A stretch of 64,000 bases of DNA, from assembly GCA_963701035.1 (NCBI GenBank), contig OY969562.1:1491459-1555458 (forward strand). Direction: 5' to 3'. The DNA is from an uncultured Solirubrobacterales bacterium (GTDB taxonomy: Bacteria; Actinomycetota; Thermoleophilia; Solirubrobacterales; Solirubrobacteraceae). The position numbers were made by a program, and so were the translations under genes. Within the stretch, counting starts at the first letter, position 1; every line of letters starts with the position of its first letter. Shown here in pieces: positions 7,468 through 50,586 of this stretch. The notes beneath the pieces are model-generated. The model was given only the letters and a program-made list of their open reading frames with translations. It was not told the origin of the DNA and made no database searches.

Positions 7468-8478
7468 ATGATCGCAGTTGGAGTGGACACCCACAAGCAC
7501 GAGCACCTCGCCAGAGCGCTCGACCATCTCGGACAGCTGCTGGGCGGGGTGACCGTCGACGCGAGCCTCGCCGGCTACACCCAGTTGATGCAGTGGCTCA
7601 GAACGCTCGAGGGAAATGTTGTGGTCGGGATCGAGGGCGCCGGCAGCTACGGCGCCGGCCTCTGCGAGTACCTCCTCGCCGAAGGAATTACTGTCGTGGA
7701 GGTCGAGCGTCCCCGCCGCCAGGACCGCCGACGAGGAAAGTCCGATGAGATCGACGCGCTCCTGGCCGCGAAGAAGGTTCTCGCCAACGACGGGCTCTCC
7801 ACGCCCCGCGTCGGTGGCACACGCCAAGCCCTGGCGGCGTTGCTGATCGCGCAGCGCACCTGCAAGGGCGAGCGCACAAGGCTGCTCAACCAGATCCAAG
7901 CGATGAACACCACCGCACCCCTCGCGCTGCGCGAGCGAATCGGCGAGGGCAACGGCCGCAACCTCGCCGATCGGCTGGTGAAGATGCGTACTCGCAGCGA
8001 CCGGCCCGCGAGCGAGCAGCTGATTTTCACCGTCATGCGTGACCTCGCTCGACGAGCGCAAGAGCTCGCCGCTCAAGCCAGTGCCTACGAGCACGAGCTC
8101 ACCGTCCTGATCAGTTCCCTCGATGCAACACTCCTGCAGGAGCAGGGCGTCGGCCCGATCTCCGCAGCCAAGCTCTTGGTCTGCGACCCCAAACGGCTGA
8201 AGAGCGAGGCGGCGTTCGCGCGCTGCAACGGCACCGCTCCCAAGCCCGCCAGCTCCGGGCAAACAATCCGCTACCGACTCTCCCGCGGCGGTGACCGACA
8301 AGCCAACAACGCACTCCACACAATCGCCCTGCACCGCGCCCGCCGCGACACCGAAACCCGCGCCTACCTCGACCGCCGCATCAGCGAGGGAAAGACCAAA
8401 CGCGAGGCCATGCGCGCCCTCAAGCGACACCTCTCCCGCCACCTCTACAAACAACTCATCACGATCCCGCTGACCTAA
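7468..8478 (+). CDS. IS110 family recombinase/transposase
   Basis: GVDTHK, GIEGAGSYG, KSDEIDA (DEDD RuvC-like); PASSG..RLSRGGDRQAN (C-terminal transposase domain); AGGAG RBS. Confidence 0.95.
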   Translation: MIAVGVDTHKHEHLARALDHLGQLLGGVTVDASLAGYTQLMQWLRTLEGNVVVGIEGAGSYGAGLCEYLLAEGITVVEVERPRRQDRRRGKSDEIDALLAAKKVLANDGLSTPRVGGTRQALAALLIAQRTCKGERTRLLNQIQAMNTTAPLALRERIGEGNGRNLADRLVKMRTRSDRPASEQLIFTVMRDLARRAQELAAQASAYEHELTVLISSLDATLLQEQGVGPISAAKLLVCDPKRLKSEAAFARCNGTAPKPASSGQTIRYRLSRGGDRQANNALHTIALHRARRDTETRAYLDRRISEGKTKREAMRALKRHLSRHLYKQLITIPLT

Positions 8479-8887: not shown

Positions 8888-10057
8888 GTGGAGGACAAAC
8901 CCAGCGCGAACCTACCCGAGAGGGGAGATGCCGGCTTGCCGGATGCGAGCTATGCCGAGGTGCTCGCGGACATAAAGACGCGGGTTGATGCGGCTCGTGT
9001 GCGGGCGTTGCGCGCGGCTAACGCGGAGTTGATGGGGGTCTACTGGCACATCGGACGGCACATCGCCGAGCAGGAGGATGCCGCGCCGGTCAAACGTGGC
9101 CGTAGCGCTCCGAAGATCATCGCGCGTCTCTCTGCGGACCTCCGCGCCGCGTACCCGGACACCACGGGATTCTCGCCGCGAAACCTCCGCTACATGCGGG
9201 ACCTGTCCCGCGCGTGGACTGAGGAGGAAATGTTGCAACACGGTGTTGCAACATTTCCCTGGGGCCACATCGTTGCTCTGCTGGGCATCCGTGACCCCGG
9301 GATCCGAGCCTGGTACGCCGAGCGCGCCGGCGAATGGACGCGGCCCGTGCTTCAGCACCATATCGCCAACGACCTGCATCTCTCCCAGGGCGCGGCGCCC
9401 AGCAACTTCGAGCGCGCTCTGCCCCCCGGTGACGCCGAAGCCGCGCAGGCACTGACCCGCGATCCGTTGATCGTGGACTTCATCCGGGGCACACCGGGAC
9501 GCGAGCGCGATCTCGAGCTCGCCCTGCTCGCCGACATCGAGCGCTTCATGACCGCACTCGGCAAGGGCTTCTCCTTCTACGGGCGCCAGCTCCCACTCAC
9601 GGTCGGCGACCGCGACTTCGCCACCGACCTGGTCTTCTACCACCACCCCCAGCGTCGGTTCGTGGTGATCGAGCTGAAGATCGGCGAGTTCGACCCCGAG
9701 CACGCCGGCAAGCTCAACTTCTACGTCAATGCCGTCGACGAGCAACTCGCCGCCCCCGAGGACACGCCCACCATCGGGATCCTCCTCTGCGCCACTCGCG
9801 ATGAGGCAGTCACGGAGATGACCCTCCGCGGCATCTCGAGCCCAATCGCCGTTGCACGATGGAAGACAGGCTCGGAGATGACCATCACAGAAGAGCCCAC
9901 CGTCTCACCAGGAATGCAAGCCGAGCTGGCAGAGATGCGCGACGTAGAGGTCGAGCTGACCGCCTTCGCCACCCGTCAGCTGGCCGCGATCGAAGAGACC
10001 ACACCCGACCCCGGCCAAGACATCACCGGCGATCCCGCGGACCCGTCTGGCGCATAG
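8888..10057 (+). CDS. YhcG/DUF1016 family PD-(D/E)XK nuclease, full length
   Basis: N-terminal YWHIG..GFSPRNLRYMR..PWGH; C-terminal DLVFYH..FVVIELKIGEF..GKLNFY..IGILLC. Confidence 0.9.
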   Translation: MEDKPSANLPERGDAGLPDASYAEVLADIKTRVDAARVRALRAANAELMGVYWHIGRHIAEQEDAAPVKRGRSAPKIIARLSADLRAAYPDTTGFSPRNLRYMRDLSRAWTEEEMLQHGVATFPWGHIVALLGIRDPGIRAWYAERAGEWTRPVLQHHIANDLHLSQGAAPSNFERALPPGDAEAAQALTRDPLIVDFIRGTPGRERDLELALLADIERFMTALGKGFSFYGRQLPLTVGDRDFATDLVFYHHPQRRFVVIELKIGEFDPEHAGKLNFYVNAVDEQLAAPEDTPTIGILLCATRDEAVTEMTLRGISSPIAVARWKTGSEMTITEEPTVSPGMQAELAEMRDVEVELTAFATRQLAAIEETTPDPGQDITGDPADPSGA

Positions 10058-12928: not shown

Positions 12929-13942
12929 ATGATGATCGCAGTTGGAGTGGACACCCACAAGCACGAGCACCTCGCCAGAGCCCTCGACCACCTCGGACAG
13001 GCCCTGGGGGGTCTGACTATCAACGCGAGCCTGGCCGGCTACATGAAGCTCACCCAATGGCTCAGAACGCTCGAGGGAGAAGTTGTCGTTGGGATCGAGG
13101 GCGCCGGCAGCTACGGCGCCGGACTTTGCGAGTTTCTCCTCGCCGAGGGGATCACCGTGGTGGAGGTCGAGCGTCCCCGCCGCCAGGACCGCCGAAGGGG
13201 GAAGTCCGACGAGATCGACGCGTTGATGGCCGCGAAGAAGGTGCTCGCCGACGACGGGCTCTCCACACCCCGAGCCGGCGGCACACGCCAAGCACTCGCA
13301 GCCTTGCTGATCGCGCAGCGCACCTGCAAGGGCGAGCGCACACGGCTCCTCAACCAGATCCAAGCACTGAACACCACCGCACCCCTCGCGCTGCGCGAAA
13401 GGGTCGGCGAGGGCAACGGCCGCGACCTCGCCCAACGACTCATCAAGATGCGCACCCGCAACGACCGGCCCGCAAGCGAGCACCTGATCTTCACCGTTAT
13501 GCGTGACCTCTCCCGCCGAGCGCAAGAGCTCGCCGCCCAAGCCAGGACCTACGAGCACGAGCTCACCATCCTGATCAGCTCCCTGGACCCCACACTCCTG
13601 CAGGAAGACGGAGTCGGCCCGATCTCCGCAGCCAAGCTCCTGGTCTGTGACCCCAAACGCCTCAAGAGCGAGGCAGCGTTCGCGCGCTGCAACGGAACCG
13701 CCCCCAAGCCCGCCAGCAGCGGACAAACAATCCGCTACCGCCTCTCCCGCGGCGGCGACCGCCAAGCCAACAACGCGATCCACACCATCGCCCTGCACCG
13801 AGCCCGCCGCGACACCCAAACCCGCGCCTACCTCGACCGACGCACCAGCGAAGGAAAGACCAAACGCGAGGCCATGCGCGCACTCAAGCGACACCTCTCC
13901 CGCCACCTCTACAAACAACTCATCAACATCCCCCTCACCTGA
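12929..13942 (+). CDS. IS110 family recombinase/transposase, copy 2
   Basis: Same motifs as copy 1 with scattered substitutions. Confidence 0.95.
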   Translation: MMIAVGVDTHKHEHLARALDHLGQALGGLTINASLAGYMKLTQWLRTLEGEVVVGIEGAGSYGAGLCEFLLAEGITVVEVERPRRQDRRRGKSDEIDALMAAKKVLADDGLSTPRAGGTRQALAALLIAQRTCKGERTRLLNQIQALNTTAPLALRERVGEGNGRDLAQRLIKMRTRNDRPASEHLIFTVMRDLSRRAQELAAQARTYEHELTILISSLDPTLLQEDGVGPISAAKLLVCDPKRLKSEAAFARCNGTAPKPASSGQTIRYRLSRGGDRQANNAIHTIALHRARRDTQTRAYLDRRTSEGKTKREAMRALKRHLSRHLYKQLINIPLT

Positions 13943-15342: not shown

Positions 15343-16758
15343 TCATGTCGGTGTCTTGGAGCGGGACGCCTCTTCTGTCCGCGAAAGCAAGCGCACGCCA
15401 AGGTCGCCATGTTTCTGGCGTGGAGGGGGTGTGTGGGGTTGGAGTGTGATGCGTCCGCCGCGTGCGGGTACGATGAATACGTTGCGGTGCGCGACTCGCT
15501 CTGCTCGCTGGTGGGAGGGTTCGAGGCGGGCGTGGCGCAGGATTGTCCTGAGCACGATTCGGGCCTCGGAGAGGGAGAACGCGGCGCCGATGCATCGTCT
15601 GGGTCCGCCGCCGAAGGGGATCCAGGTGTAGGTGCCGGCGCGCGTGTCAAGGAAGCGCTCGGGGCGGAAGGCGAGCGGGTCTGGGTAGAGCTCGGGACGG
15701 CGGTGCACGAGCGTTATGTAGGGGACGACCATCGTGCCGCTCGGGATCGTCAGCCCGGGTAGCTCGAACTGCTCGGTGGCGAGTCGTGCGGTGAGCGGGA
15801 AAGCTGGGCGCAATCGCATCGCCTCCTTGATGACCGCGTCGAGGTACTCATCGTCTCCGTCGAGCGCGGCGGCTTGCAGGCGTGTGAGCGCGTCGGGGTA
15901 GCGGCTGACGCGCTCGAATATCCACGTCAGGGTCGAAGCGGTCGTGTCGTGGCCACCGAGCAGCAGGGTGCGCATCGCGTCGCAGATCTCCTCGTCGCTC
16001 ATCAGGCGGTCTTGGCTGTCGGGTGTGCGCAGGAACATTCCGAGCACGTCCTGGCCGTCGAGTTGACCGCTGCTGCGGCGGTGGGCGACCTCTTCCAGCA
16101 CGATCGCGTCGACCGCGTCGATCGCGCGGCGGACTCGTGGGAACGGTCTGTCCCACCCGTTCTGGCGGCTGGTCGCGATTATCGTCTGCAGGAAGAACCG
16201 CCGTGAGTGGCCCTCGGCAAGCAGCGCGAGCGTCGCTGAGCGCAACCGGTTGACGCGCGCGGGGTCGGTGACCCCGAACACGGTGGCCATGATCACCTCG
16301 AGGCTGATCGCTTCCATGTGCGGCTGGGAGGGAGTGGGGTGCCCGTAGGGCCAGCGTGCGAGAACCTCTTCGGTCTTGCGCTGCATCGTCTCGTGGTAGC
16401 CGGCAAGCGCGTCGCCGTGGAACGGGGGCAGCTGCGTGCGCCGCCTGCGCATGTGCTCGGCGCCGTCGATGTTCGTGAGTCCCGTCGGGCCGAGGAAGAG
16501 ATGGTGCGCGGACGCCTTCGCCAGCGCCGCTCCAAGTGCAAGCACGCCGGTGTCGGCTGTGAAGATGCGCTTGATGTCCTCGGGATCGGTCAGGCACAGC
16601 CACGGCCCCGTCGCCGGCATCGGCACGAGGAAACGGTCGCCGAGGCGCTGGCAGTGGCGCGCGAACTGCTCCGGGGCCAGCCAGTACTGGGCGGCATTGA
16701 CAACCGCGGGGCGTCGCAGTCGAGGCAAGTCGGTAAGTGTCTGGTCCATGAGCCACAT
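15343..16758 (-). CDS. Cytochrome P450
   Basis: GGHDTT (I helix), EAMR (ExxR), FGGGPRRCIG heme-thiolate motif. Confidence 0.95.
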   Translation of the reverse strand: MWLMDQTLTDLPRLRRPAVVNAAQYWLAPEQFARHCQRLGDRFLVPMPATGPWLCLTDPEDIKRIFTADTGVLALGAALAKASAHHLFLGPTGLTNIDGAEHMRRRRTQLPPFHGDALAGYHETMQRKTEEVLARWPYGHPTPSQPHMEAISLEVIMATVFGVTDPARVNRLRSATLALLAEGHSRRFFLQTIIATSRQNGWDRPFPRVRRAIDAVDAIVLEEVAHRRSSGQLDGQDVLGMFLRTPDSQDRLMSDEEICDAMRTLLLGGHDTTASTLTWIFERVSRYPDALTRLQAAALDGDDEYLDAVIKEAMRLRPAFPLTARLATEQFELPGLTIPSGTMVVPYITLVHRRPELYPDPLAFRPERFLDTRAGTYTWIPFGGGPRRCIGAAFSLSEARIVLRTILRHARLEPSHQRAERVAHRNVFIVPARGGRITLQPHTPPPRQKHGDLGVRLLSRTEEASRSKTPT

Positions 16759-39511: not shown

Positions 39512-41421
39512 CACGCCTCCTTCGGTTCGCTGTTGACGGACGCGTGCTCGCCGGCCGCGCCCCTGCCGCCGGGCTCCTGATCGCTGAGCAGCTCCTCGGC
39601 GTCGAACTCCTCCATGAAGCGCCGCACCCACTCCTCCTCGGTCGGCGCCTCTCCACCTGACGCGAGCTCCGCGTCGGCCTCGAGCAGCTCGTAGGAGAGC
39701 CGCCAGCGCCCGCCCGTGACCTGGCGCAGCGCCTCGGAGACGATCGCGCGGTTGTCGGGATGCTCGGCCTTCTTCTTCAGGAACGCCGCCGAGGAGGCGA
39801 AGGCGACGGTCAGATCCTCGCCATCCACCGCGGCCGGGCGCGCGTCTGCGATCAGGGCGCCGATCAGGGCGTTGTCGGCGCGCACGACGTCGATCACCGC
39901 CGGCCACACCGCGAGCAGGGAATCGAGGTCCGTCGCGGGGGTCGGCGTGGGCGCTGGCGCCGGCGCGGCGATCCCGTCGGGGGCCGATGTGGACTCAGGC
40001 GCCGCGGCGGAGGCGGGGGCAGAATCGGGCTCTGGTCCGGGGTCGGGCGCCGCGTCGAGGACGGGTCCGGGCGCGGACACGGGCGCGACCTCCGCCGGGG
40101 GTGCGGCGATCGCCTCGGGTGCGGCAGCGGCCGAGTCAACGGTGGCGTCGCTCCCGCCCCCACCCCCGGACACCTCCGGCGCTGCTGAATTCACGGCCGG
40201 CGCCGGCACCGTCCGCTCGGCGGCGACGGCCGAGACGGTGGGGACGCCGCGCTCGCGCTCCAGGCGCTCGATCCGGGCGAGCAGCGCCGGCGTCGAGGCG
40301 TCGATCGCGGGGCTCGCGGCCTTGACCAGGGCCAGCTCCAGTCGCGTGCGCGGGTCGGCGCCGGCGCGCACGCCCTCCAATGCTTCCCCGAGCAGCTCGA
40401 GCAGGCGCACGACGACGGCGCGGTCGACGCGCTCGGCCTGGGCGCGCAGGCGCGCATCGGCCTCCTCGGTCAGCGACAGTTCGGCGGGCAGCTCGCCGAG
40501 CGTCTGCACGACCAGCAGCTCGCGCGCGTGCACCTCGAGGTCGGAGGCGAACGAGCCGGCGTCGCGACCGCTCTCCACGCAGCGCTCCAGCGCGCGCAGC
40601 GCGCGACTGCCGTCGCCCGCGTCGACGGCGTCGACGAGCTCTTCGAGCAGGCCCGCGTCGGCCACGCCGAGCACCGCGAGCACGTCCGCGAGCACGATCT
40701 CCGGCCCGCTGTAGGTGAGCAGCTGCTCGAGCGTGCCGAGCGCGTCGCGGAAGGAGCCCGTCGCGGAGCGCGCGACGGCGGCGAGCGCCTCGGGGGGGAT
40801 CTCGATCGACTCGGCGGCGGCGGTGCGGCGCACGACCGAGGCGATCTGCTCGACCGTGGGGCGGTGGAAGTCGAAGCGGTGGCAGCGGTCGACGACCGTC
40901 GCGGGCACCTTCTGGGCCTCGGTCGTGGCGAGCACGAAGACCGTGTTCGGGGGCGGCTCCTCGAGCGTCTTCAGGAACGCGTTCCAGGCGGCCGTCGAGA
41001 GCATGTGGGCCTCGTCGAGGATGTACACCTTGCTGCGCCCCGAGACCGGCGAGTAGGCGACGCTCTCGCGCAGCTCGCGGATGTCGTCGACAGAGTTGTT
41101 CGAGGCGGCGTCCATCTCGATCACGTCGAGCGATGACGCGTGCGCGATCGAGATGCACGATTCGCACTCGCCGCAGGGGTCGATCGTCGGTCCGCGCTCG
41201 CAGTTCAGGCAGGCCGCGAGGATCTTCGCCATCGAGGTCTTCCCCGTCCCGCGCGAGCCGACGAACAGGTAGGCGTGGTGGACCTTCCCGCGCTGCACGG
41301 CGTTGCGCAGCGTGCGCACGACCGGCTCCTGGCCGACGACGTCGGCGAACGTACGGGGCCGGTGCCTGCGATAGAGAGATTGCGCTTGCTCGGCTTGCGC
41401 CTGTGGCTGGTCGATCGGCAC
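39511..41421 (-). CDS. dnaX: DNA polymerase III subunit gamma/tau
   Basis: LYRRHRP.TF..VVGQ, GSRGTGKT, IEMDAASNN, DEAHML; GTG start at 41421. Confidence 0.97.
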   Translation of the reverse strand: MPIDQPQAQAEQAQSLYRRHRPRTFADVVGQEPVVRTLRNAVQRGKVHHAYLFVGSRGTGKTSMAKILAACLNCERGPTIDPCGECESCISIAHASSLDVIEMDAASNNSVDDIRELRESVAYSPVSGRSKVYILDEAHMLSTAAWNAFLKTLEEPPPNTVFVLATTEAQKVPATVVDRCHRFDFHRPTVEQIASVVRRTAAAESIEIPPEALAAVARSATGSFRDALGTLEQLLTYSGPEIVLADVLAVLGVADAGLLEELVDAVDAGDGSRALRALERCVESGRDAGSFASDLEVHARELLVVQTLGELPAELSLTEEADARLRAQAERVDRAVVVRLLELLGEALEGVRAGADPRTRLELALVKAASPAIDASTPALLARIERLERERGVPTVSAVAAERTVPAPAVNSAAPEVSGGGGGSDATVDSAAAAPEAIAAPPAEVAPVSAPGPVLDAAPDPGPEPDSAPASAAAPESTSAPDGIAAPAPAPTPTPATDLDSLLAVWPAVIDVVRADNALIGALIADARPAAVDGEDLTVAFASSAAFLKKKAEHPDNRAIVSEALRQVTGGRWRLSYELLEADAELASGGEAPTEEEWVRRFMEEFDAEELLSDQEPGGRGAAGEHASVNSEPKEA

Positions 41422-41514
41422 CGTTGTCCTGAGTCTACCCACGGCCGCGGGGCGGCCGGGAGCCGTTCGGGCAGGGTACGCCGGGGACGCTTGGACCGGA
41501 TAGCGTGCTCGTCC

Positions 41515-43011
41515 GTGAGAGCCCGGATCGAGAACTTCCCGGCCCGCCTCGTGGCCCCGCTCGCGATCGCCGCGGGGGCCGTCGTGCTGTGGGTGGCGGC
41601 CGGCGTCGGCTTCGCGAACTACGACACGCTCTACGCGCTCGCCTGGGGCGGTCAGCTGGCGCGGGGCGAAACGCCCCAGTACGGGATCCCGATCGCGCCG
41701 ACACCGCACCCGCTCGTGGAGGTGCTCGGGGTGGTGCTCTCGCCGCTGTCGCCGGGCGCGATCGAAGGCGTGACGGTCGCGCTCGGCTTCCTCGCGCTGT
41801 CGGCGTGCGGGTGGGTGCTCTACCGCCTCGGCTCGCTCTGGTTCGGCCGCGCGGCCGGGGCGCTCGCGGCGCTGATCCTGCTCACGCGCGTGCCTGTCCT
41901 CTCCTACGGCGTGCGCGCGTACGTCGACATCCCCTATCTGCTGCTCGTGCTCTGCGCGCTGCTCGTCGAGGCGCGGCACCGGCGTGCGGGCGCACCGGTG
42001 CTGGCGCTGCTTGCGCTCGCCGGGCTGCTGCGGCCGGAGGCGTGGGTGTTCTCGGGGCTCTACTGGCTGTATCTGATGGGTCTCACGCCCCGCTGGGCGT
42101 ATAGCTCAGTGAGAGACCGCTCGCTTCACACGCGACAGGTCGCGGGTTCGAAACTGCGCACCCGCGGCGCGGTCGTGCGCCTGACGCTGCTGGCGGCAGC
42201 CGCGCCCCTCGTTTGGGTGGCGAGCGACTGGCTGGTGACCGGGCATCCGCTGTGGTCGTTGACGAACACGCGGCACACGGCCGAAACGCTCGATCGCATC
42301 ACCGGGATCGCGAACGTGCCCGAGTACATCCCGCGGCGGATCGGCGAGATCCTCAGCCCGCCGGTGCTCGCCGGCGCGGCGCTCGGCGGGGTGATGTCGC
42401 TGTGGCTTTTGCCGCGGCGGGCGCGTCTTGGTGCGGTTGTCGGGGTCATCGCGGTGCTCGTGTTCGCGGCCTTCGCGACAGCCGGGCTGCCGATCAACAC
42501 GCGCTACGCGTTCCTGGCCGCGGCGATCCTCTGCGTCTTCTGCGGCGCCGGCGTATTCGGCTGGACGCGTCTCCCGCGCGAGGACCCGCGCCGGCGCTGG
42601 TGGATGGCTGCCGGCGCGCTCGTGCTCGTGGGCCTCCTCGCCTACATCCCCACCCAGTACCGCACGGCGCACAAAGAACTGACGAAACTGGCGCGCCAGG
42701 AAACGTTCCAGAACGAGCTCGTGGCGCTCGTCGAAGACGGCTCGATCACACGTCGCTGCGAGCCCGTGGGAGTGCCGAACCATGCCCCGATCCCGCTGTT
42801 GGCGCTGTACCTAAAGACCAGCCCGAGCAAGATCGTGAGCGCCGAAGCCGGCCCGATCGCCCACGGTTCTTATGTCGACCCGGCGAGCAAGGAAGTCGAA
42901 GACGACTACGTGCTCGACCCCCACGACCCGCACCTGCCCGTCGAGGTGCCGCCGGGGTTCACCGAGGCGCACGCGAACAGCGCCTGGTTCATCTTCGAGC
43001 ACTGCCCGTAG
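41515..43011 (+). CDS. Integral membrane protein, probable GT-C-type glycosyltransferase
   Basis: Multiple TM helices, NYDTLYAL.WG, LLRPEAW; start GTG 41515. Confidence 0.7.
   Translation: MRARIENFPARLVAPLAIAAGAVVLWVAAGVGFANYDTLYALAWGGQLARGETPQYGIPIAPTPHPLVEVLGVVLSPLSPGAIEGVTVALGFLALSACGWVLYRLGSLWFGRAAGALAALILLTRVPVLSYGVRAYVDIPYLLLVLCALLVEARHRRAGAPVLALLALAGLLRPEAWVFSGLYWLYLMGLTPRWAYSSVRDRSLHTRQVAGSKLRTRGAVVRLTLLAAAAPLVWVASDWLVTGHPLWSLTNTRHTAETLDRITGIANVPEYIPRRIGEILSPPVLAGAALGGVMSLWLLPRRARLGAVVGVIAVLVFAAFATAGLPINTRYAFLAAAILCVFCGAGVFGWTRLPREDPRRRWWMAAGALVLVGLLAYIPTQYRTAHKELTKLARQETFQNELVALVEDGSITRRCEPVGVPNHAPIPLLALYLKTSPSKIVSAEAGPIAHGSYVDPASKEVEDDYVLDPHDPHLPVEVPPGFTEAHANSAWFIFEHCP
42095..42164 (+). 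pseudogene. Degenerate tRNA-Val(CAC) copy embedded in frame in a CDS
   Basis: 54 of the first 60 nt identical to the tRNA at 50515; acceptor and T stems are broken. Confidence 0.8.
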
Positions 43012-43049
43012 GAAGTCACGATCTGGGCTCTTGACGTCCTGAACTAGAG

Positions 43050-44159
43050 TCAATCGACCAGCAAATGTGCGCCGGGCCCCGGGCGCACTTCGCGCGCATC
43101 GGATGGGACCGGGACATCCGGCGCGAACAGGCCGAGCACGCTGCCGCCGAAGCCACCGCCCATCAGCCGCGCGCCCGCGGCGCCGTCCTCGCGCAGCTGG
43201 GTGACGGCGCGCTCGACCGTCGGCGTCGAGACCTCGTAGAGGTCGCGCAGGCTCGCGTGGGAGGCGTCGAGCAGCGCGCCGACGGCGGGCAGGTCCTCCG
43301 CGCGCAGCGCCGCGACGGCCTCCCCGACCCGTTCGTTTTCGCCGAGCACGTGCTCGGCGCGGGCCCGCAGCGGCTGCGGCAGGCCGGCCACGGCCGTGGC
43401 GCTCGCGTCGCGTAGCGAGTCGAGGCCCAGCAGCTCGCACGCGCGCTCGCACTGCGCGCGGCGCTCGTTGTAGCCGGAGCTCGCGTTCGCGTGCTGCTCG
43501 CCGGAGTCGACGACGACGAACCGCCAGCCCCCGAGCCACAGCGGCACCGGCTCGATCTCGAGCGTGCGGAAGTCGATCCGCACGGCCGTGTCGGGCGCAC
43601 CGTAGAGGGAGGCGAGCTGGTCGAGCATCCCCGTCTGCGCCCCGGCCCAGTCGTTCTCTACACGCGCGCACAGGCGCGCGAGCGCGATCCGGTCGAGCGG
43701 CGTCCGCCCCTCCGGCCCCGGCAATGCTTCGATGGGCGTGCGCGACCCGTCCCCAGCCGCACTCGAGGCGAGCTCCGAGAGGGCGAGGCACAGGGCGACC
43801 TCGAGCGCCGCCGAGGAGGACAGGCCCGCGCCCCGCTCGAGATCGCCGCCGATCTCCAGGCGCGCGCCCACCAGCGGAACGCCGGCTCGCCGCAGCTCGG
43901 CGGCGGCGCCCCGCACGAATGCGCGCCAGCCCTCCGTGGGGGAGATCTCGGCGAGATTGAACTCGTCCAGCTCGTCGAGGTCGCGCGCGTGAGCGTAGAT
44001 GCGTTGGGCGCCGGGCGAGTCCGGCTCGGCCGGCGCCGCGCGCACGACCACGCCCTCGGCGATCGCGAACGGGAGCGCGAGGCCCTGGTTGTAGTCGGTG
44101 TGCTCGCCGATCAGGTTCACGCGCCCGGGCGCGAACGCGGCCGCGCGCTCACGTCGCAC
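43050..44159 (-). CDS. galK: Galactokinase
   Basis: GRVNLIGEHTDYN, GAGLSSSAALE, GARLMGGGFGG. Confidence 0.95.
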   Translation of the reverse strand: MRRERAAAFAPGRVNLIGEHTDYNQGLALPFAIAEGVVVRAAPAEPDSPGAQRIYAHARDLDELDEFNLAEISPTEGWRAFVRGAAAELRRAGVPLVGARLEIGGDLERGAGLSSSAALEVALCLALSELASSAAGDGSRTPIEALPGPEGRTPLDRIALARLCARVENDWAGAQTGMLDQLASLYGAPDTAVRIDFRTLEIEPVPLWLGGWRFVVVDSGEQHANASSGYNERRAQCERACELLGLDSLRDASATAVAGLPQPLRARAEHVLGENERVGEAVAALRAEDLPAVGALLDASHASLRDLYEVSTPTVERAVTQLREDGAAGARLMGGGFGGSVLGLFAPDVPVPSDAREVRPGPGAHLLVD

Positions 44160-45066
44160 GCAGGATCGCCTCGCCGAGGCTGGCGGCGGACTCCTCGGGG
44201 AGCACGTCGGAGATGAACGTGCCCGCGCCCTGCTCGGAGCCGGCGAGGTACTTGAGCTTCTCCGCGGTGCGCAGCGGCGGATAGAACTCGACGTGCAGAT
44301 GCCCCGCCCCCGCGGACGGACCGGTGGTCGGAGCCTGGTGGACGACCATCACGTAGGGGAAGGGCCGGTCGAACAGCATGTCGTACCCGCGCGCGAGCGC
44401 CTGCAGCCCCGCGGCGAGCAGGCGCAGCTCATCGGCCTCGCAGGCGAGCAGGCTCGGGCGGTGCTCGCGCAGCACCACGTGGGCTTCGTAGGGCCAGCGC
44501 GCCGCATACGGGATGTAGGCGACTACGGCCTCGTTCTCGTAGACGATTCGCCGTCCATCCTCGAGCTCGCGGCGCAGCAGCGCGCACGGCGCGCAGCCGC
44601 CCAGGCGCGCGTCGGCGGCGAGCTCGAGCCTCGGCACGGGCGGCAGGAACGGGTAGCCGTAGATCTGCCCGTGGGGATGGTGCAGCGTCACGCCGACCTC
44701 GACCCCGCGGTTCTCGAAGATCATCACGTACTCCACGTCCGCCCTGGCGCCGAGCTCCTGGTAGCGCTCGCGCCAGACCCACATCAGCGCCTCGGCGCGC
44801 TCGGGCGCGAGCGTCCCGAACGAGTCGTCGTGACGATCCGTGTACACGACCACCTCCGCCGCCCCGCGCGGCGCCTCGAAGGCGGGGAAGCGGTTCTCGA
44901 ACACCGCGATCTCGAACGCGGGAAACGGGATCTCCGTCTCCTCCCCGCCCGGCCGGGTCGGACACAGCGGGCAGTGCTCGCGCGCGGGCAGGAACGTACG
45001 GTCCTGACGGTGGATCGCGTAGACGACCGGCTCGTCGCGCAACTCGTTGCGGCGCTCCTCGCTCAT
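44149..45066 (-). CDS. galT: Galactose-1-phosphate uridylyltransferase
   Basis: CPLCP, FENRFP, ENRG..GVTLHHPHGQ. Confidence 0.95.
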   Translation of the reverse strand: MSEERRNELRDEPVVYAIHRQDRTFLPAREHCPLCPTRPGGEETEIPFPAFEIAVFENRFPAFEAPRGAAEVVVYTDRHDDSFGTLAPERAEALMWVWRERYQELGARADVEYVMIFENRGVEVGVTLHHPHGQIYGYPFLPPVPRLELAADARLGGCAPCALLRRELEDGRRIVYENEAVVAYIPYAARWPYEAHVVLREHRPSLLACEADELRLLAAGLQALARGYDMLFDRPFPYVMVVHQAPTTGPSAGAGHLHVEFYPPLRTAEKLKYLAGSEQGAGTFISDVLPEESAASLGEAILRAT

Positions 45067-45248
45067 TCGCGCGCGGAGCCCTCGTTTGCGGATCCTCCGT
45101 CCGTGGATCTCCCCTGCGTGTAGAGGATCAGCGCGCGGCCATCCCCTTTCACGTAGCGCCTGAACCTGAGCGGCCCGTAGGCCTCGGGCTCGACCGGATC
45201 ATTTCCGGAACTTGCGGAAAGGGAGGCGTCCTCGTCGGGGAAAGCCAT
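45063..45248 (-). CDS. Small hypothetical protein
   Basis: 61 aa (..RYVKGDGRALILY..); its stop overlaps the galT start. Confidence 0.45.
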   Translation of the reverse strand: MAFPDEDASLSASSGNDPVEPEAYGPLRFRRYVKGDGRALILYTQGRSTDGGSANEGSARE

Positions 45249-45423
45249 TGATCGAGGGTATACCCTTGTGTGAGAAGACACGAACAGGGCAGATTGGAGC
45301 AATGTGGATTGCCCAGATAGTTGTTTGGGTAACAAACTCGGGAGAACAAACACACAAGACTCAGGGACTCAGTCAAGGGCGCCGCTGGTCACGGTGTCCT
45401 CAATGCACGAGGAGGAGGATCAA

Positions 45424-46560
45424 ATGTCAGAGATCGATCAGGCAGCCGGGACGAAGGGGAGTCTCGAGCACGTCGACGCGCCGGAGATCGCCAAACGCGG
45501 CATCGACCGCCGCTCGTTTCTACAGCGCACCGCGCTGACCGGGGTGGCGGCCGGCTCGGTGGGGACGCTGCTCAGCGCCTGTGGCTCGAATTCCTCGAGC
45601 GCCAGCAGCGGTGGGAGCAACGTATTCGGGTCGACCCCGAACTACAAATTCGTGATCGTCAACCACGTCACGACCAACCCGTTCTTCACGCCCACGCAGT
45701 ACGGCGCGGCGGACGCCTGCAAGCTGCTCGGCTGCTCCTACCAGTGGACCGGCTCGGAATCGAGCAACGTCAGCCAGATGGTCTCGGCGCTCAACACCGC
45801 CGTCACCGGCGGCGCCGACGGGATCGCGATCTCGCTGATCGACCTGCACGCGTTCAACGCGCCGGTCGAAGCCGCGCTCAAGGCGGGCATCCCCGTGGTC
45901 GCCTACAACGCCGACGCGCCCACCAACAAGCGCCTCTCCTACATCGGGCAGAACCTCGAAAAGGCCGGCGAACTGCTCGGCGAACGGATCGTCGCCGACG
46001 TCGGCTCGGGGGACGTGGCGCTGTTCATCGCCACTCCGGGCGCGGCCAACTTGCAGCCACGCCTGGAAGGAGCGCTCAAGGCGATCAAAGCCTCGGGTAA
46101 GCCGATCACGCCGCACACGGTCGCGACCGGCGCCGCCGTCCCGGCCGAGCTCTCGACGATCGACGCGTACTGGGTGGGCCACCCGAGCACGAAGGGCATG
46201 TACTCCTTCGACGGCGGCTCGACCGAAAGCCTCGCGAAAGTGATGCAGAAGTACGGCCTCCCCGCCAAGGGGATCAAGGCCGGCGGCTTCGACCTCACCG
46301 AAGAGACGCAGAAGTTGCTGCAGGAAGGGAACATCGAATTCACGATCGATCAGCAGCCCTACCAGCAGGGGTTCCTGCCGATCCTCCAGCTGTTCTTCTG
46401 GAGGGCCTCCGGCTCGCTCAGCGGACCCGCGGAAGTCGACACGGGTCTGAAGTTCATCGATAAAGAAACCGTCGTTCCCTACGTCGAATCGAAATCCCGC
46501 TACGAGGGCACCTCCACCGAAGCGAAAGTCATCCCGATCAAGGCCGGTACGGCCGCCTGA
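45424..46560 (+). CDS. Sugar ABC transporter substrate-binding protein (Tat/lipoprotein)
   Basis: IDRRSFL twin-arginine signal, LSAC lipobox, periplasmic binding protein type 1 features. Confidence 0.9.
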   Translation: MSEIDQAAGTKGSLEHVDAPEIAKRGIDRRSFLQRTALTGVAAGSVGTLLSACGSNSSSASSGGSNVFGSTPNYKFVIVNHVTTNPFFTPTQYGAADACKLLGCSYQWTGSESSNVSQMVSALNTAVTGGADGIAISLIDLHAFNAPVEAALKAGIPVVAYNADAPTNKRLSYIGQNLEKAGELLGERIVADVGSGDVALFIATPGAANLQPRLEGALKAIKASGKPITPHTVATGAAVPAELSTIDAYWVGHPSTKGMYSFDGGSTESLAKVMQKYGLPAKGIKAGGFDLTEETQKLLQEGNIEFTIDQQPYQQGFLPILQLFFWRASGSLSGPAEVDTGLKFIDKETVVPYVESKSRYEGTSTEAKVIPIKAGTAA

Positions 46561-46562
46561 TC

Positions 46563-47762
46563 ATGGCGAGCAGCAGCACCGGACCCGCCATCCCCGCTCC
46601 CTCGCCCTCGGGCGGGGACAGCGCGGGGACAGGCGCGGGCGGTCTGGGCGGGACGGGGACGGGCACGGGCGGCGGGGGGACGGGCACGCGCAGGCACGGC
46701 GTCACCCTCACCGGCGAGGACGGCCTGCTCTCGCGCGTGCTGGCGTTGCGCGAGGGCAGCATCATCGTCGTCACGGTCGTCGTCGCGATCTACTTCGCGC
46801 TGAACACGTCGAGCTTCTTCACCTCGGCGAACTTCAAGACGCTGCTGCCGTACTTCGCGCCGTTCGCGATCCTCGGGGCGGGCGAGGTGTTCGTGATGAT
46901 CCTCGGCGAGATCGACCTCTCGATCGGCGGCACGTATCTGCTCGCCCCGTATCTCTTCTACAAGCTCTCCGCGACCGTCGGCCTGCCGCTCGTCCCGGCC
47001 GTGATCGTCGCGCTGATCGCCTGTATGGCGGTCGGCCTGATCAACGGCTTCTTCACGGCGATCGTCGGCATCAGCTCGTTCGTGGTCACGCTCGGCATGC
47101 TGTTCGCGCTGGAGGGGCTGACGCTGGTGATCTCCCACGGCGAGCCCGTCGAGACGCCCGGCGCCCAGGTGCACGCGACCACCCGCGAGGTCACCCATGT
47201 GGTCAACGGCGTGCAGATCCACCTCCCCGAACAGGTCAACCACATCAGCACGTTCGCGAAAATCTTCGGCGCCGGCATCTACTCGGAGCTGATCTGGGCG
47301 CTCGTGATCGTGATCGTCCTGCAGATCGTGCTGACGTTCACGCGCTGGGGCCTGCACACGGTCGCGGTCGGCTCGAACAAGCTCGGCGCCGGCGAGGCCG
47401 GGGTGCACGTGAAGCTGGTGATGATCCGCAACTTCGTCCTCTGCGCCACCGCCGGCGGCCTCGTCGGGATCCTCGAGGCGGTGCGCTCGTCCTCGGTCCA
47501 GCCCGACACGGCCGGCGCCAACGAAATCCTCTTCTACGGGATCTCCGCCGCGGTGATCGGCGGCACGCTGCTCGCCGGCGGCTCCGGCACCGTCGTCGGC
47601 GCCCTGATCGGGGCGCTGTTCCTCGGCGTTCTCAAGGACGGCCTGATCCTGCAGGGCGTCAACGCGAACTACCTGCTGCTCTACCTCGGCCTCGCGATCA
47701 TCATCGCGATGACCGTCAACGTCTACGTCCAACGCGTACGCAGGGGGAGCCACAGTGCCTGA
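46563..47762 (+). CDS. Sugar ABC transporter permease
   Basis: GEIDLSIG, SSFVVTLGM, AAVIGGTLL.GGSG. Confidence 0.92.
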   Translation: MASSSTGPAIPAPSPSGGDSAGTGAGGLGGTGTGTGGGGTGTRRHGVTLTGEDGLLSRVLALREGSIIVVTVVVAIYFALNTSSFFTSANFKTLLPYFAPFAILGAGEVFVMILGEIDLSIGGTYLLAPYLFYKLSATVGLPLVPAVIVALIACMAVGLINGFFTAIVGISSFVVTLGMLFALEGLTLVISHGEPVETPGAQVHATTREVTHVVNGVQIHLPEQVNHISTFAKIFGAGIYSELIWALVIVIVLQIVLTFTRWGLHTVAVGSNKLGAGEAGVHVKLVMIRNFVLCATAGGLVGILEAVRSSSVQPDTAGANEILFYGISAAVIGGTLLAGGSGTVVGALIGALFLGVLKDGLILQGVNANYLLLYLGLAIIIAMTVNVYVQRVRRGSHSA

Positions 47763-47821
47763 CGCAGAGCTTCACAGGGAGAGAACCGTCCCCAATATCG
47801 AGGTCCGTCCGGGAGGTCAGG

Positions 47822-48667
47822 ATGCCTGATGCGGTCGGGAGCGAGCCGGAGGTGGTTCAGCCGACCTCGGCGAGCGACGATGTGCTGCGCGTCGAGCACC
47901 TGAGCAAGCGCTTTGGCCCGGTCACGGCGCTGCGCGACATCAGCCTGCACCTGCGCAAGGGCGAGGTGCTCGGCCTGCTCGGCGACAACGGCGCGGGCAA
48001 GTCGACCTTGATCAAGATCCTCTCCGGCTTTCAAAAGCAGGACGGCGGCGAGATGTTCCTGCACGGTGAGCCCTACGCGCCAAAAGGCGTGGATGACGCC
48101 CGCTCGAAAGGGATCGACACCGTCTACCAGGACCTCGCCCTGATCGACGAACTCTCCGTCTACCACAACCTCTTCCTGCGTCGCGAGCTCGTGCACAAGC
48201 CGCTGCCGTTCCTCGCCAACCGCGAGATGAAGCGTCAGGCGCGTACCGCGCTCGACGAGATCGGGATCAACATCCCCCGGATCGACGTCGCTGTCGCGCG
48301 CCTCTCCGGCGGCCAGCGCCAGGCGATCGCGGTCGCGCGGACGGTCAACGGCGACGCGGACATCATCCTGCTGGACGAGCCGTTGGCCGCGATGGGCGCC
48401 AAGGAGGGCTCGATGATCCTCGACCTCGTCGCGCGCCTGAAGGCGGAGGGCAAGGTCTCGATCATCATGATCCTCCACAACTACGTCCACGTCCTGCAGG
48501 CCTGCGACCGCGTCTCGATGATCCAGGAGGGCGTGATCGCGCTCGACAAGCCCACCGCCGAGACCTCGGTCGAGGAGCTCACCGACATCGTCGTCAACGA
48601 GTACCGCCGCGCGCGCGAAGAAACACACGCCGAAGCCGCACATGGGCCGGCAGGCGCTAGGCCCTAA
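47822..48667 (+). CDS. Sugar ABC transporter ATP-binding protein (single NBD)
   Basis: GDNGAGKS, LSGGQRQ, LLDEP. Confidence 0.95.
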   Translation: MPDAVGSEPEVVQPTSASDDVLRVEHLSKRFGPVTALRDISLHLRKGEVLGLLGDNGAGKSTLIKILSGFQKQDGGEMFLHGEPYAPKGVDDARSKGIDTVYQDLALIDELSVYHNLFLRRELVHKPLPFLANREMKRQARTALDEIGINIPRIDVAVARLSGGQRQAIAVARTVNGDADIILLDEPLAAMGAKEGSMILDLVARLKAEGKVSIIMILHNYVHVLQACDRVSMIQEGVIALDKPTAETSVEELTDIVVNEYRRAREETHAEAAHGPAGARP

Positions 48668-48681
48668 GGAAGTTGTTGTAC

Positions 48682-48726
48682 TTTTAAAAAACTCCGTGAC
48701 ACTATAGTTACACGCAGTTTTTAAAA
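48682..48726. other. AT-flanked inverted repeat (bidirectional terminator and/or 28-bp recombinase-like site)
   Basis: TTTTAAAAA-ACTCCGTGACA-CTATAG-TTACACGCAGT-TTTTAAAA between convergent ABC gene and ffs. Confidence 0.55.
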
Positions 48727-48734
48727 TATATAGT

Positions 48735-49009
48735 GGACCGTGCACCCCTCGTCGAGATCCTCGCCACCGGCCGCCTGATCGCTGTCCACGACTCCGGTCC
48801 GGGTACTCCCGCTGCGCCTGCCGGGGATCGCTTAAGGCTGCTTCCTTCCGGACCTGACCTGGTTCACAAGCCGACACCGCGCGGGACCCGAACCATCGAC
48901 GCCCCGAACAGCGGAGCGACCGGGGCAAAACCCCTCAGAAAGGGAATTCAGCCCCGCTAGAGCGGATTGCGGATTCAGGGCGCCGCTACCTCCCCGCCTA
49001 GCACGGTCC
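48735..49009 (-). ncRNA. ffs: Large (Alu-domain) bacterial SRP RNA
   Basis: CAGGTCCGGAAGGAAGCAGC domain IV; 5' Alu-like CCGTGCTAGGCGGGGAGGTAGCGG..GCAATCCGCTCTAGC; terminal GGACCGTGC/GCACGGTCC pairing. Confidence 0.93.
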
Positions 49010-50514: not shown

Positions 50515-50586
50515 GGGCGCGTAGCTCAGTGGGAGAGCGCTCGCTTCACACGCGAGAGGTCGCAGGTTCGAAACCCGCCGCGCCCA
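50515..50586 (+). tRNA. tRNA-Val(CAC)
   Basis: GGGCGCG/CGCGCCC acceptor stem, CTCGC-TTCACAC-GCGAG anticodon arm, GGTTCGAAA T loop; CCA not encoded. Confidence 0.97.

Follow-up and report, generated by a model that had tools for sequence, protein, structure and literature searches.

A tRNA-Val(CAC)-derived segment read in frame as a loop of a predicted GT-C membrane protein in Solirubrobacteraceae, with signs of concerted evolution with the neighbouring tRNA gene

How does DNA that closely resembles a transfer RNA (tRNA) gene come to lie in the middle of an intact protein-coding frame, and what has kept it recognizable there? The question is raised by a 64,000-nucleotide stretch of the genome of an uncultured Solirubrobacterales bacterium (GenBank assembly GCA_963701035.1, contig OY969562.1, positions 1,491,459 to 1,555,458 of the forward strand), hereafter the window, in which a copy of tRNA-Val(CAC) sits within the gene of a polytopic membrane protein (coordinates in Table 1). 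The in-frame insertion of a whole tRNA is real, and it is most likely a tolerated passenger in a disordered loop that has been kept tRNA-like through gene conversion. A preliminary description, made from the letters of the window, had recognized the copy and proposed a whole-tRNA insertion exapted as coding sequence or, alternatively, an RNA structure with an effect on translation; what the present analysis adds to it is the age of the insertion, its wide distribution among relatives, and signs of concerted evolution with the genuine tRNA gene nearby.

Aligned without gaps and in the same orientation, positions 42095-42154 match the tRNA-Val(CAC) gene 50515-50586, located 8.4 kb away, at 54 of 60 nucleotides. 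A BLAST search of the whole genome (3.0 Mb in a single contig) with tRNA-Val(CAC) returned this copy as the sole other strong match (90%, E 4e-17), and the likeness first noticed in the window is thereby borne out. Mismatches fall at tRNA positions 6, 7, 18, 23, 42 and 50, and then at most positions beyond 60. The core of the copy, from tRNA position 8 to 59, is identical at 48 of 52 positions and is the portion that stays alike across lineages; the last 12 positions, at the 3' end, are the most diverged part and are ambiguous in register. The first base of the copy, the G at 42095, corresponds to tRNA position 1, and a Trp codon is formed by T42094 together with G1 and G2 of the tRNA. The copy thus includes the 5' end, unlike the 3' copies usually left at attachment (att) sites, as the preliminary description had pointed out. 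Elsewhere in the genome, partial copies of tRNAs are mostly 3' pieces of the kind usual for integration sites, an exception being a 5'-type tRNA-Thr-like stretch (positions 1-49) near G000 2473123-2473171.

Read in the frame of the long open reading frame (ORF) 41140..43011, the segment translates as WAYSSVRDRSLHTRQVAGSKLRTR. Seven of its 24 codons are rare, with shares of synonymous use of 0.14 for TAT, 0.03 for TCA, 0.009 for AGA, 0.02 for CTT, 0.04 for CGA, 0.08 for GGT and 0.12 for AAA, and the five codons that had been singled out by eye as rare (TAT, TCA, AGA, CTT and AAA) are all among them. The G+C content at third codon positions is 0.71 in the segment and 0.90 in the entire gene. We assembled 102 orthologues of the gene (20 from genomes of the genus, 80 from metagenome contigs and 3 from a pattern scan of 401 genus genomes; the near-identical contig L029 is among them), and use L numbers for individual orthologues and their lineages and G numbers for genomes. 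All 102 are single open frames across this point. The intact, conserved frame indicates that the tRNA-derived segment is translated on its sense strand and in frame as part of the protein, as had been read from the window.

Several more trivial identities could be ruled out. An assembly chimera is excluded by L029, an independent metagenome contig which is 99.47% identical over 5.8 kb and carries the same loop, with 2 differences in the 1497 positions of the gene, by five public gene calls of the 498-amino-acid (aa) protein that are 100% identical, and by homologous copies in 13 other lineages. A coding sequence ending before 42095 is excluded by the open frame and by the C-terminal half, which is kept in the same frame across the 102 orthologues. 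Fusion of two genes around an intergenic tRNA does not fit the outgroups or a 35%-identical paralogue in the same genome, all of which are contiguous with short loops. A dispersed repeat or MITE (a miniature transposable element with inverted repeats) was rejected because the sequence occurs in only two places in the genome, the copy and the real tRNA, with no other dispersed copies. An att-site scar was rejected because the copy starts at position 1, is most diverged at its 3' end, has no island beside it and sits within a gene that is kept in more than 100 relatives. A nested working tRNA gene, of the kind known from selB-selC, was also rejected, as the genome has an intact separate tRNA-Val(CAC), and ARAGORN finds no other.

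With the reading frame intact, we turned to the protein that carries the segment. Its relatives come, by source name, from metagenome-assembled genomes of Solirubrobacteraceae. Profile matches are weak: Pfam PMT_2 reaches 15.5 bits where its cut-off is 26.1, and the NCBIfam model for the LA_3751/2 putative glycosyltransferase reaches 18.8 where its cut-off is 200. The residues N35-Y36-D37 are invariant. A sequence search against solved structures returned no match for the protein. An AlphaFold2 model built from 52 homologues is all-helical and polytopic (predicted template modelling score 0.73; mean predicted local distance difference test score, pLDDT, 68). The best Foldseek match of the model is ArnT (5f15; TM score 0.55, E 3e-5, probability 1.00), followed by the oligosaccharyltransferase OST, PglB, AglB and AftD. 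On the strength of this model, the host protein is predicted to have the GT-C fold of ArnT-like glycosyltransferases.

The tRNA-encoded residues lie within residues 193-213, the sole long internal stretch of the model with pLDDT below 50. The preliminary description had placed them between two hydrophobic segments, and this agrees with the modelled helices on either side (residues 175-187 and 217-242) as well as with Kyte-Doolittle peaks at 133-153 and 218-241. Residues 154-217, between the hydrophobic segments, include 11 Lys or Arg and 2 Asp or Glu; by the positive-inside rule this richness in Arg and Lys suggests that the tRNA-derived loop is presumably cytoplasmic.

Among the 102 orthologues, the loop between the invariant motifs GLYWLY and LTLLAAAAPL ranges from 11 to 118 aa and is unalignable across much of the family, with tandem duplications in several lineages; it is a general hot spot of insertion, deletion and duplication. 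The 118-aa extreme, in L028, is built from many repeats of a unit resembling WGPKRAHAAHA, 11-12 aa in length; elsewhere the repeated units are SQPEVDAS-like (L048) or GAAQSGA (L069), and HARSEPPETETP is duplicated in L047.

Within this variable loop, tRNA-Val DNA is recognizable in 14 orthologues, in a shared position and reading frame. The best preserved is L031, with 66 of 69 positions identical to the tRNA and all 52 of positions 8-59, together with L035 (66 of 70) and L112 (50 of 52 in the core); similarity then decreases through L030, L050, L110, L111, L033, the window, L041, L061, L081, L012 and L044. Aligning orthologues, which had been suggested as the way to find whether the 24 codons are an insertion, thus reveals a near-entire tRNA at the same site in some and unrelated or very short loops in others, and the insertion half of the earlier proposal holds. 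Beyond the recognizable copies, the 36-aa loops of L072, L090 and L096 are colinear, decayed homologues: in a fixed register they match the tRNA core at 27-30 of 52 positions, where 16,004 control windows reached a maximum of 25. These three decayed loops and 11 of the tRNA-like ones (L050, L110, L112, L031, L044, L061, L081, L012 and the window among them) share the 36-aa length and the same junctions. Remnants persist elsewhere, with L045 and L069 keeping the 5' 15-25 nucleotides and L042 the T-arm part (AGSK), and the 29-aa loop of L086 looks, from its sequence, like a decayed and shortened derivative of a tRNA-type loop. For the 29-aa loops of outgroups (the L010, L019 and L078 types), pairwise DNA alignments with the tRNA were unconvincing. 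Many more database homologues, down to about 73% identity, bear SSV(G/R)ERSLHTRE.AGSK, which is the literal translation of the tRNA. Rare codons are retained in the tRNA-like forms, and the decayed forms use common ones.

How old is the insertion, and did it happen once? In a tree of the orthologues built without the loop columns by quick maximum-likelihood searches, tRNA-type loops occur in both halves of a clade of 79 rows, interspersed with unrelated loops, which requires at least nine state changes. A strict pattern combining the junction with the D arm is matched by only 4 of the 401 species genomes in the genus (the scan gave three further carriers), so tRNA-like states are a minority. 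Two small features tie the copies together: the base before position 1 is T in every embedded copy and A in the real gene, and nearly all 36-aa forms, including the pristine L031, have C changed to T immediately past the T loop. Because of the shared junctions and 36-aa length, the preceding T, the C-to-T change and the graded series of decay, we read the pattern as one old insertion that has since decayed, been deleted or been overwritten, and the tRNA-type loops would then have a single origin.

As such, the account that we favour, with moderate confidence, is a single old in-frame insertion of a whole tRNA that was tolerated in a disordered loop, re-homogenized by gene conversion and occasionally exchanged as an allele. 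A complete copy of the neighbouring tRNA-Val(CAC) would have been inserted once, long ago, on the sense strand and in a stop-free frame, into the DNA of a disordered, positively charged loop. Because that loop tolerates almost any sequence, the insert would simply have been translated, as 24 residues in the window. Its later evolution would have been near-neutral, with drift towards GC-rich codons, partial or whole deletion and occasional overwriting. In several lineages, the central 40-60 bases would have been brought back to the real tRNA sequence by non-reciprocal recombination (gene conversion), with the invariant real gene 2-11 kb downstream, usually in the same orientation, as the donor. 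Whole loop alleles may also have moved occasionally between related lineages by homologous recombination.

The strongest competitor of this account, unlikely in our estimate and still to be taken seriously, is that the copy is kept by selection as a tRNA-like domain of the messenger RNA (mRNA), either as a site of cleavage by RNase P or RNase Z or as a binding site for a tRNA-binding protein that tunes protein synthesis; under the same joint estimate we include a variant in which rare codons or structure cause a pause after the transmembrane segment. The copy in the window gives it little encouragement. Against the Rfam tRNA model, it scores 19.5 bits (42102-42165), below the gathering score of 29 and far from the 66.8 bits of the real gene, and ARAGORN, run on the window, leaves it uncalled. 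Its D stem pairs at 3 of 4 positions and its anticodon stem at 4 of 5. In the colinear register, pairing in the acceptor and T stems is poor, and a shifted register gives a better acceptor helix; Infernal and ARAGORN assign different pairings to the dozen bases at the 3' end. Of the disruptive changes that had been attributed to all four stems, those in the D and anticodon stems are upheld, and those in the acceptor and T stems hold in the colinear register, with statements on these two less firm than those on the core because the 3' register is ambiguous. Judged by the family threshold, a call by a tRNA finder, and an intact cloverleaf and T loop, the copy in the window falls short of a functional tRNA, its 3' part being the less firm portion of that judgement; it is in an intermediate state, with four core changes, damaged D and anticodon stems and a diverged 3' end. 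When the embedded copies, that of the window included, are folded by minimum free energy, they do not take the cloverleaf shape.

Other lineages speak more in favour of an RNA domain. Three embedded copies, those of L031, L050 and L110, are identified by ARAGORN as tRNA-Val(CAC), with acceptor helices of 6-7 pairs; the helix of L031 is a perfect 7-bp one in a register shifted by one, formed partly from substituted bases. L050 and L110 have different substitutions at one T-stem position, both of which restore pairing. Four embedded copies exceed the Rfam threshold (L050 with 42.2, L031 with 41.3, L035 with 39.2 and L112 with 35.0 bits), a tRNA-type loop was apparently re-acquired in the lineage of L112, nucleotide conservation in the core exceeds that of the loop flanks even at third codon positions, and the window segment has its seven rare codons and a folding energy modestly below that of shuffled sequences (z = -2.3). 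Nevertheless, all tRNA-like copies, at 19.5-42.2 bits, fall short of the 66.8 bits of the real gene by 24 or more, most orthologues lack the copy or have it decayed or deleted, and strict matches in the genus are few. Among the embedded copies, no paired changes restoring pairing were seen in the D or anticodon stems, where the changes are disruptive; the TTC of the T loop has become CCC in L061, L081 and L012; and the short-term divergence of the core is near neutral, as described below. A narrower form of the proposal, in which the look-alike is a working RNA module in some lineages (the L031, L050 and L110 types) that folds like a tRNA during transcription and is recognized by RNase P, RNase Z or a tRNA-binding factor, seems to us rather improbable. 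If true, the message for the GT-C protein would be split or stalled there, coupling envelope glycosylation to the state of tRNA processing or translation, and conversion would act as repair.

A related observation concerns the variable loop. The copies of L033, L035 and L111 have two substitutions in common there (AGAGGTC to AGTGCTC), and in the predicted fold this variant lengthens the anticodon hairpin to about 10 pairs by drawing in the 3' strand of the D stem. The corresponding peptide variant, RVLAGSK, is also found in several database homologues, one of them 94% identical to the window protein.

What bears on the cause is where along the loop the similarity lies and how it changes with distance. 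Between L031 and the window, the core is 0.92 identical, compared with 0.80 for the gene and 0.55 for four-fold sites. Divergence between lineages is 0.18 for the core and 0.41-0.46 for the 3' parts of the loop; restricted to third codon positions, the core gives 0.21 and the loop flanks 0.43-0.53 (the segment borders in this calculation were one base off, without effect on the result). The excess similarity ends at the limits of tRNA homology, and this core-limited similarity therefore argues both against selection on the peptide and against the simple horizontal spread of a young loop allele. Selection on the peptide as the cause of conservation was rejected on further grounds as well: substitutions are spread over all three codon positions with no concentration at the third, and third positions are better kept in the core than in the flanks. 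Together with the hypervariable, low-confidence loop and its at least nine changes of state, these results do not sustain the exaptation that had been proposed, and the peptide itself is probably near-neutral.

Close relatives give a different picture from distant ones. Core and four-fold divergence are 0.08 and 0.10 between L050 and L110, 0.17 and 0.18 between L110 and L041, and 0.12 and 0.19 in a further close pair. At greater distances, core divergence plateaus at 0.15-0.17 while four-fold divergence climbs to 0.4-0.7. This plateau fits drift with an occasional reset to an invariant template; steady purifying selection would hold the ratio constant. Two copies are, in addition, mosaics. L031 shows no difference from the tRNA in the 57 positions 4-60 and 6 in the 15 positions outside (Fisher p = 3e-5), and L112 none in the 41 positions 9-49 and 14 in the 31 outside (p = 9e-7). 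Of the 14 tRNA-like copies, 11 retain a run of about 22 identical bases in the anticodon arm, which could serve as a seed for conversion events. Taken together, the core-limited similarity, the plateau, the mosaics and the conservation of the core between distant lineages lead us to favour repeated one-way gene conversion as the homogenizing mechanism. L035 shows a further irregularity (around L035:2640-2680), a doubled 5' end in which an old-looking GGGCGTAT is followed by five bases and then by a fresh GGCGCGTAGC, adding five codons (WAY-GL-ARSS...); the doubling could be a misaligned conversion or a local duplication.

Exchange of whole loop alleles between lineages also seems to play a part. 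L112 (from G316) is 92-97% identical to L086 along the gene, and yet the two loops are wholly different, a tRNA-type loop of 36 aa in the former and one of 29 aa in the latter. The L112 loop carries a non-tRNA prefix, GFTPK, that is absent from the clade of L112. Either short-patch recombination imported a loop allele or the metagenome assembly followed a chimeric path. A distinctly improbable extension of this, to which the foreign prefix of L112 lends some support, is that horizontal exchange of a young loop allele, or chimeric metagenome assembly, explains the similarity between lineages by itself, with the resident tRNA gene uninvolved. Exchange would homogenize the whole loop, and only the tRNA-homologous core is alike; chimerism is countered by the form of the window, which is present in two independent assemblies, in a single-contig genome and in the five public gene calls; and the decayed forms show that the copy is old.

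Least probable of all, and hardly credible to us, are several independent recent insertions of the tRNA at one hot spot guided by microhomology: the patchy distribution on the gene tree with its at least nine changes, the overlap of the 5' GGGCGCG with a Trp-Ala-Arg motif that is also present in loops without the tRNA core, the extra 5' piece of L035, in which an old-looking remnant beside a fresh 5' end suggests a second event, and the proneness of the loop to insertions, deletions and tandem duplications would suit such a history, but it leaves unexplained the same junctions and 36-aa length in distant lineages, the gradation down to fully decayed yet homologous copies, the C-to-T change after the T loop, the T before position 1 and the two derived variable-loop changes shared by L033, L035 and L111.

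A number of points weigh against gene conversion acting on one old insertion. No conversion event was caught directly among the examined lineages, and no lineage was found in which a private core change of the real tRNA recurs in its embedded counterpart. The altered T arm of the real tRNA of L041 is absent from the copy embedded there, so there has been no recent conversion of the T-arm part in that lineage; the other tRNA-like lineages have the consensus donor. The boundaries of the mosaics were set after the data had been viewed, the close pairs that point to near-neutral drift number about four and come mostly from one clade, and the tree derives from a quick maximum-likelihood search in place of a full one. 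Some loop swaps derived from metagenomes, such as that between L112 and L086, could be assembly-path chimeras. Finally, the cloverleaves that ARAGORN finds in L031, L050 and L110, with the perfect shifted acceptor helix of L031, could instead reflect selection for RNA structure in some lineages.

The presumed donor is the sole Val(CAC) gene among the 52 tRNAs of the genome. In a BLAST search across the genus, in which two candidates per genome were scored and second copies were not listed, tRNA-Val(CAC) was detected in 399 of 401 genomes and was 100% identical in most. In most of the fetched loci, the real gene lies 2-9 kb downstream of the host-gene orthologue on the same strand, with distances of 3 kb in G316 and 11 kb in G254. 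The signal recognition particle (SRP) RNA gene usually sits between the two. In most relatives (among them L050, L035, L041, L061, L012, L044, L110 and L112), it directly follows the host gene, tail to tail; in the window, about 5.7 kb (43011-48738) is inserted between the GT-C gene and the SRP RNA gene, including a 369-aa ORF at 43050-44159 on the minus strand. Upstream of the GT-C gene lies dnaX, in divergent orientation.

Table 1. Coordinates of the tRNA-derived segment, its host gene and neighbouring RNA genes in the window.
Feature	Position	Strand	Description
Host coding sequence, 498-aa polytopic membrane protein	41515..43011	+	Intact ORF; public gene calls
Hypervariable loop region	42073..42180	+	36 codons, residues 187-222, between conserved GLYWLY and LTLLAAAAPL
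tRNA-Val(CAC)-derived segment	42095..42166	+	Colinear with tRNA positions 1-72, in frame; 54/60 over positions 1-60
Core of the copy	42102..42153	+	tRNA positions 8-59: D arm, anticodon arm with CAC, variable loop, 5' half of T arm
SRP RNA gene	48738..49006	-	Rfam Bacteria_large_SRP, 158.9 bits
tRNA-Val(CAC), presumed donor	50515..50586	+	ARAGORN; Rfam 66.8 bits

The real tRNA gene itself varies in a few lineages, in which it has a different, fully compensated T arm (GGTGG...CCACC or GTTGG...CCAAC): L041 at 12992-13063, L071 at 16265-16336, L082 at 9047-9118 and L076 at 8323-8394. In two of these four, the anticodon stem additionally shows a change of C to T, and L071 and L082 carry an ACGTGAG variant of the real tRNA-Val core. 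L039 and L064-L066 contain classical 3' fragments of tRNA-Val(CAC), comprising tRNA positions 23-72 and 32-72, respectively (the coordinates listed are 15466-15515 and 13318-13391 for L039 and, as an example, 13256-13296 for L066), with a full tRNA-Val gene a few kb away in each case; the real tRNA of L064-L066 has the opposite orientation to the GT-C gene. These fragments look like scars of integrative elements at tRNA-Val. Outside the window, near G000:C1 1367007, ARAGORN lists an unusual tRNA whose type it leaves undetermined and whose anticodon it calls with two bases, and an 86-nucleotide copy of it, 89.5% identical, is present elsewhere in the genome (the coordinates listed with it are 2389972-2390057).

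Several known systems resemble parts of this arrangement. In Alphaproteobacteria, the tRNA-Sec gene selC is nested in the selB ORF and has been described as the first nested tRNA gene in a bacterial protein ORF, with folding and processing of the tRNA proposed to lower synthesis of the protein (Mukai 2021, PMC8124441). In both cases, an entire tRNA lies on the sense strand of a bacterial ORF and is translated, with degenerate or remnant versions in relatives, and the selB-selC arrangement is conserved but dispensable (PMC8124441), a further likeness to the embedded tRNA-Val copy. In contrast, selC is a functional tRNA gene within a C-terminal extension that arose after loss of a stop codon (PMC8124441), and the copy described here is a second, degenerate one in the middle of a protein, forming a loop between transmembrane helices, with the functional gene 8.4 kb away and with signs of concerted evolution with that parent gene. 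Rickettsia palindromic elements and other MITEs have likewise been found inserted in frame in protein genes (PMC10969869). The former are also non-coding DNA with RNA-like secondary structure that is translated in frame as an extra surface peptide and tolerated; they are dispersed, multi-copy mobile repeats at many sites, whereas the present element, copied from a housekeeping tRNA, occupies one locus.

The 3' tRNA fragments at att sites are similar in being partial copies a few kb from the parent gene in direct orientation. Such scars, of which this genome and related loci hold examples, are exact 3' stretches of 20-50 nucleotides that flank an island; unlike them, the embedded copy starts at position 1, is best kept towards its 5' side and in the middle, sits within a conserved gene and has no adjacent integrase. 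A tRNA-like sequence is also said to be present in the leaderless xtpA mRNA of Escherichia coli, reportedly derived from a phage, located in the gene of a tiny peptide and kept base for base; RegulonDB confirms that XtpA exists. The likeness, if so, would lie in the overlap between a sequence resembling a tRNA and a translated frame of a bacterial mRNA. Gene conversion drives the concerted evolution of repeated bacterial genes such as ribosomal RNA operons, tuf and duplicated tRNA genes. As in these repeated genes, transfer at this locus appears non-reciprocal, with the two copies alike while flanks and neutral sites diverge; unlike in those systems, an RNA gene is here paired with a protein-coding frame, the transfer would run one way, and rare codons and a foreign peptide would be re-imposed. 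Our reading of the literature, whose incomplete coverage makes this weak evidence, found no description of a paralogous tRNA copy that serves as an internal in-frame loop of a membrane protein and evolves with its parent.

The locus bears on how non-coding RNA genes may seed new protein sequence in bacteria, here through a paralogous tRNA copy that became an internal protein loop and has lasted through many species-level lineages. The range of copies from pristine to decayed forms a natural series in which the adaptation of a foreign sequence to the codon usage of its host can be gauged. One-way conversion from an RNA gene into a protein-coding frame is probably at work here, and it would overwrite a segment of the protein repeatedly, whatever the peptide it encodes. 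For annotation, the consequence is that a spurious second tRNA-Val will be reported inside the coding sequence in some genomes, or that the coding sequence may be split there. The main value of the locus is as a natural example of the flow of sequence from an RNA gene to a protein and of concerted evolution across gene classes.

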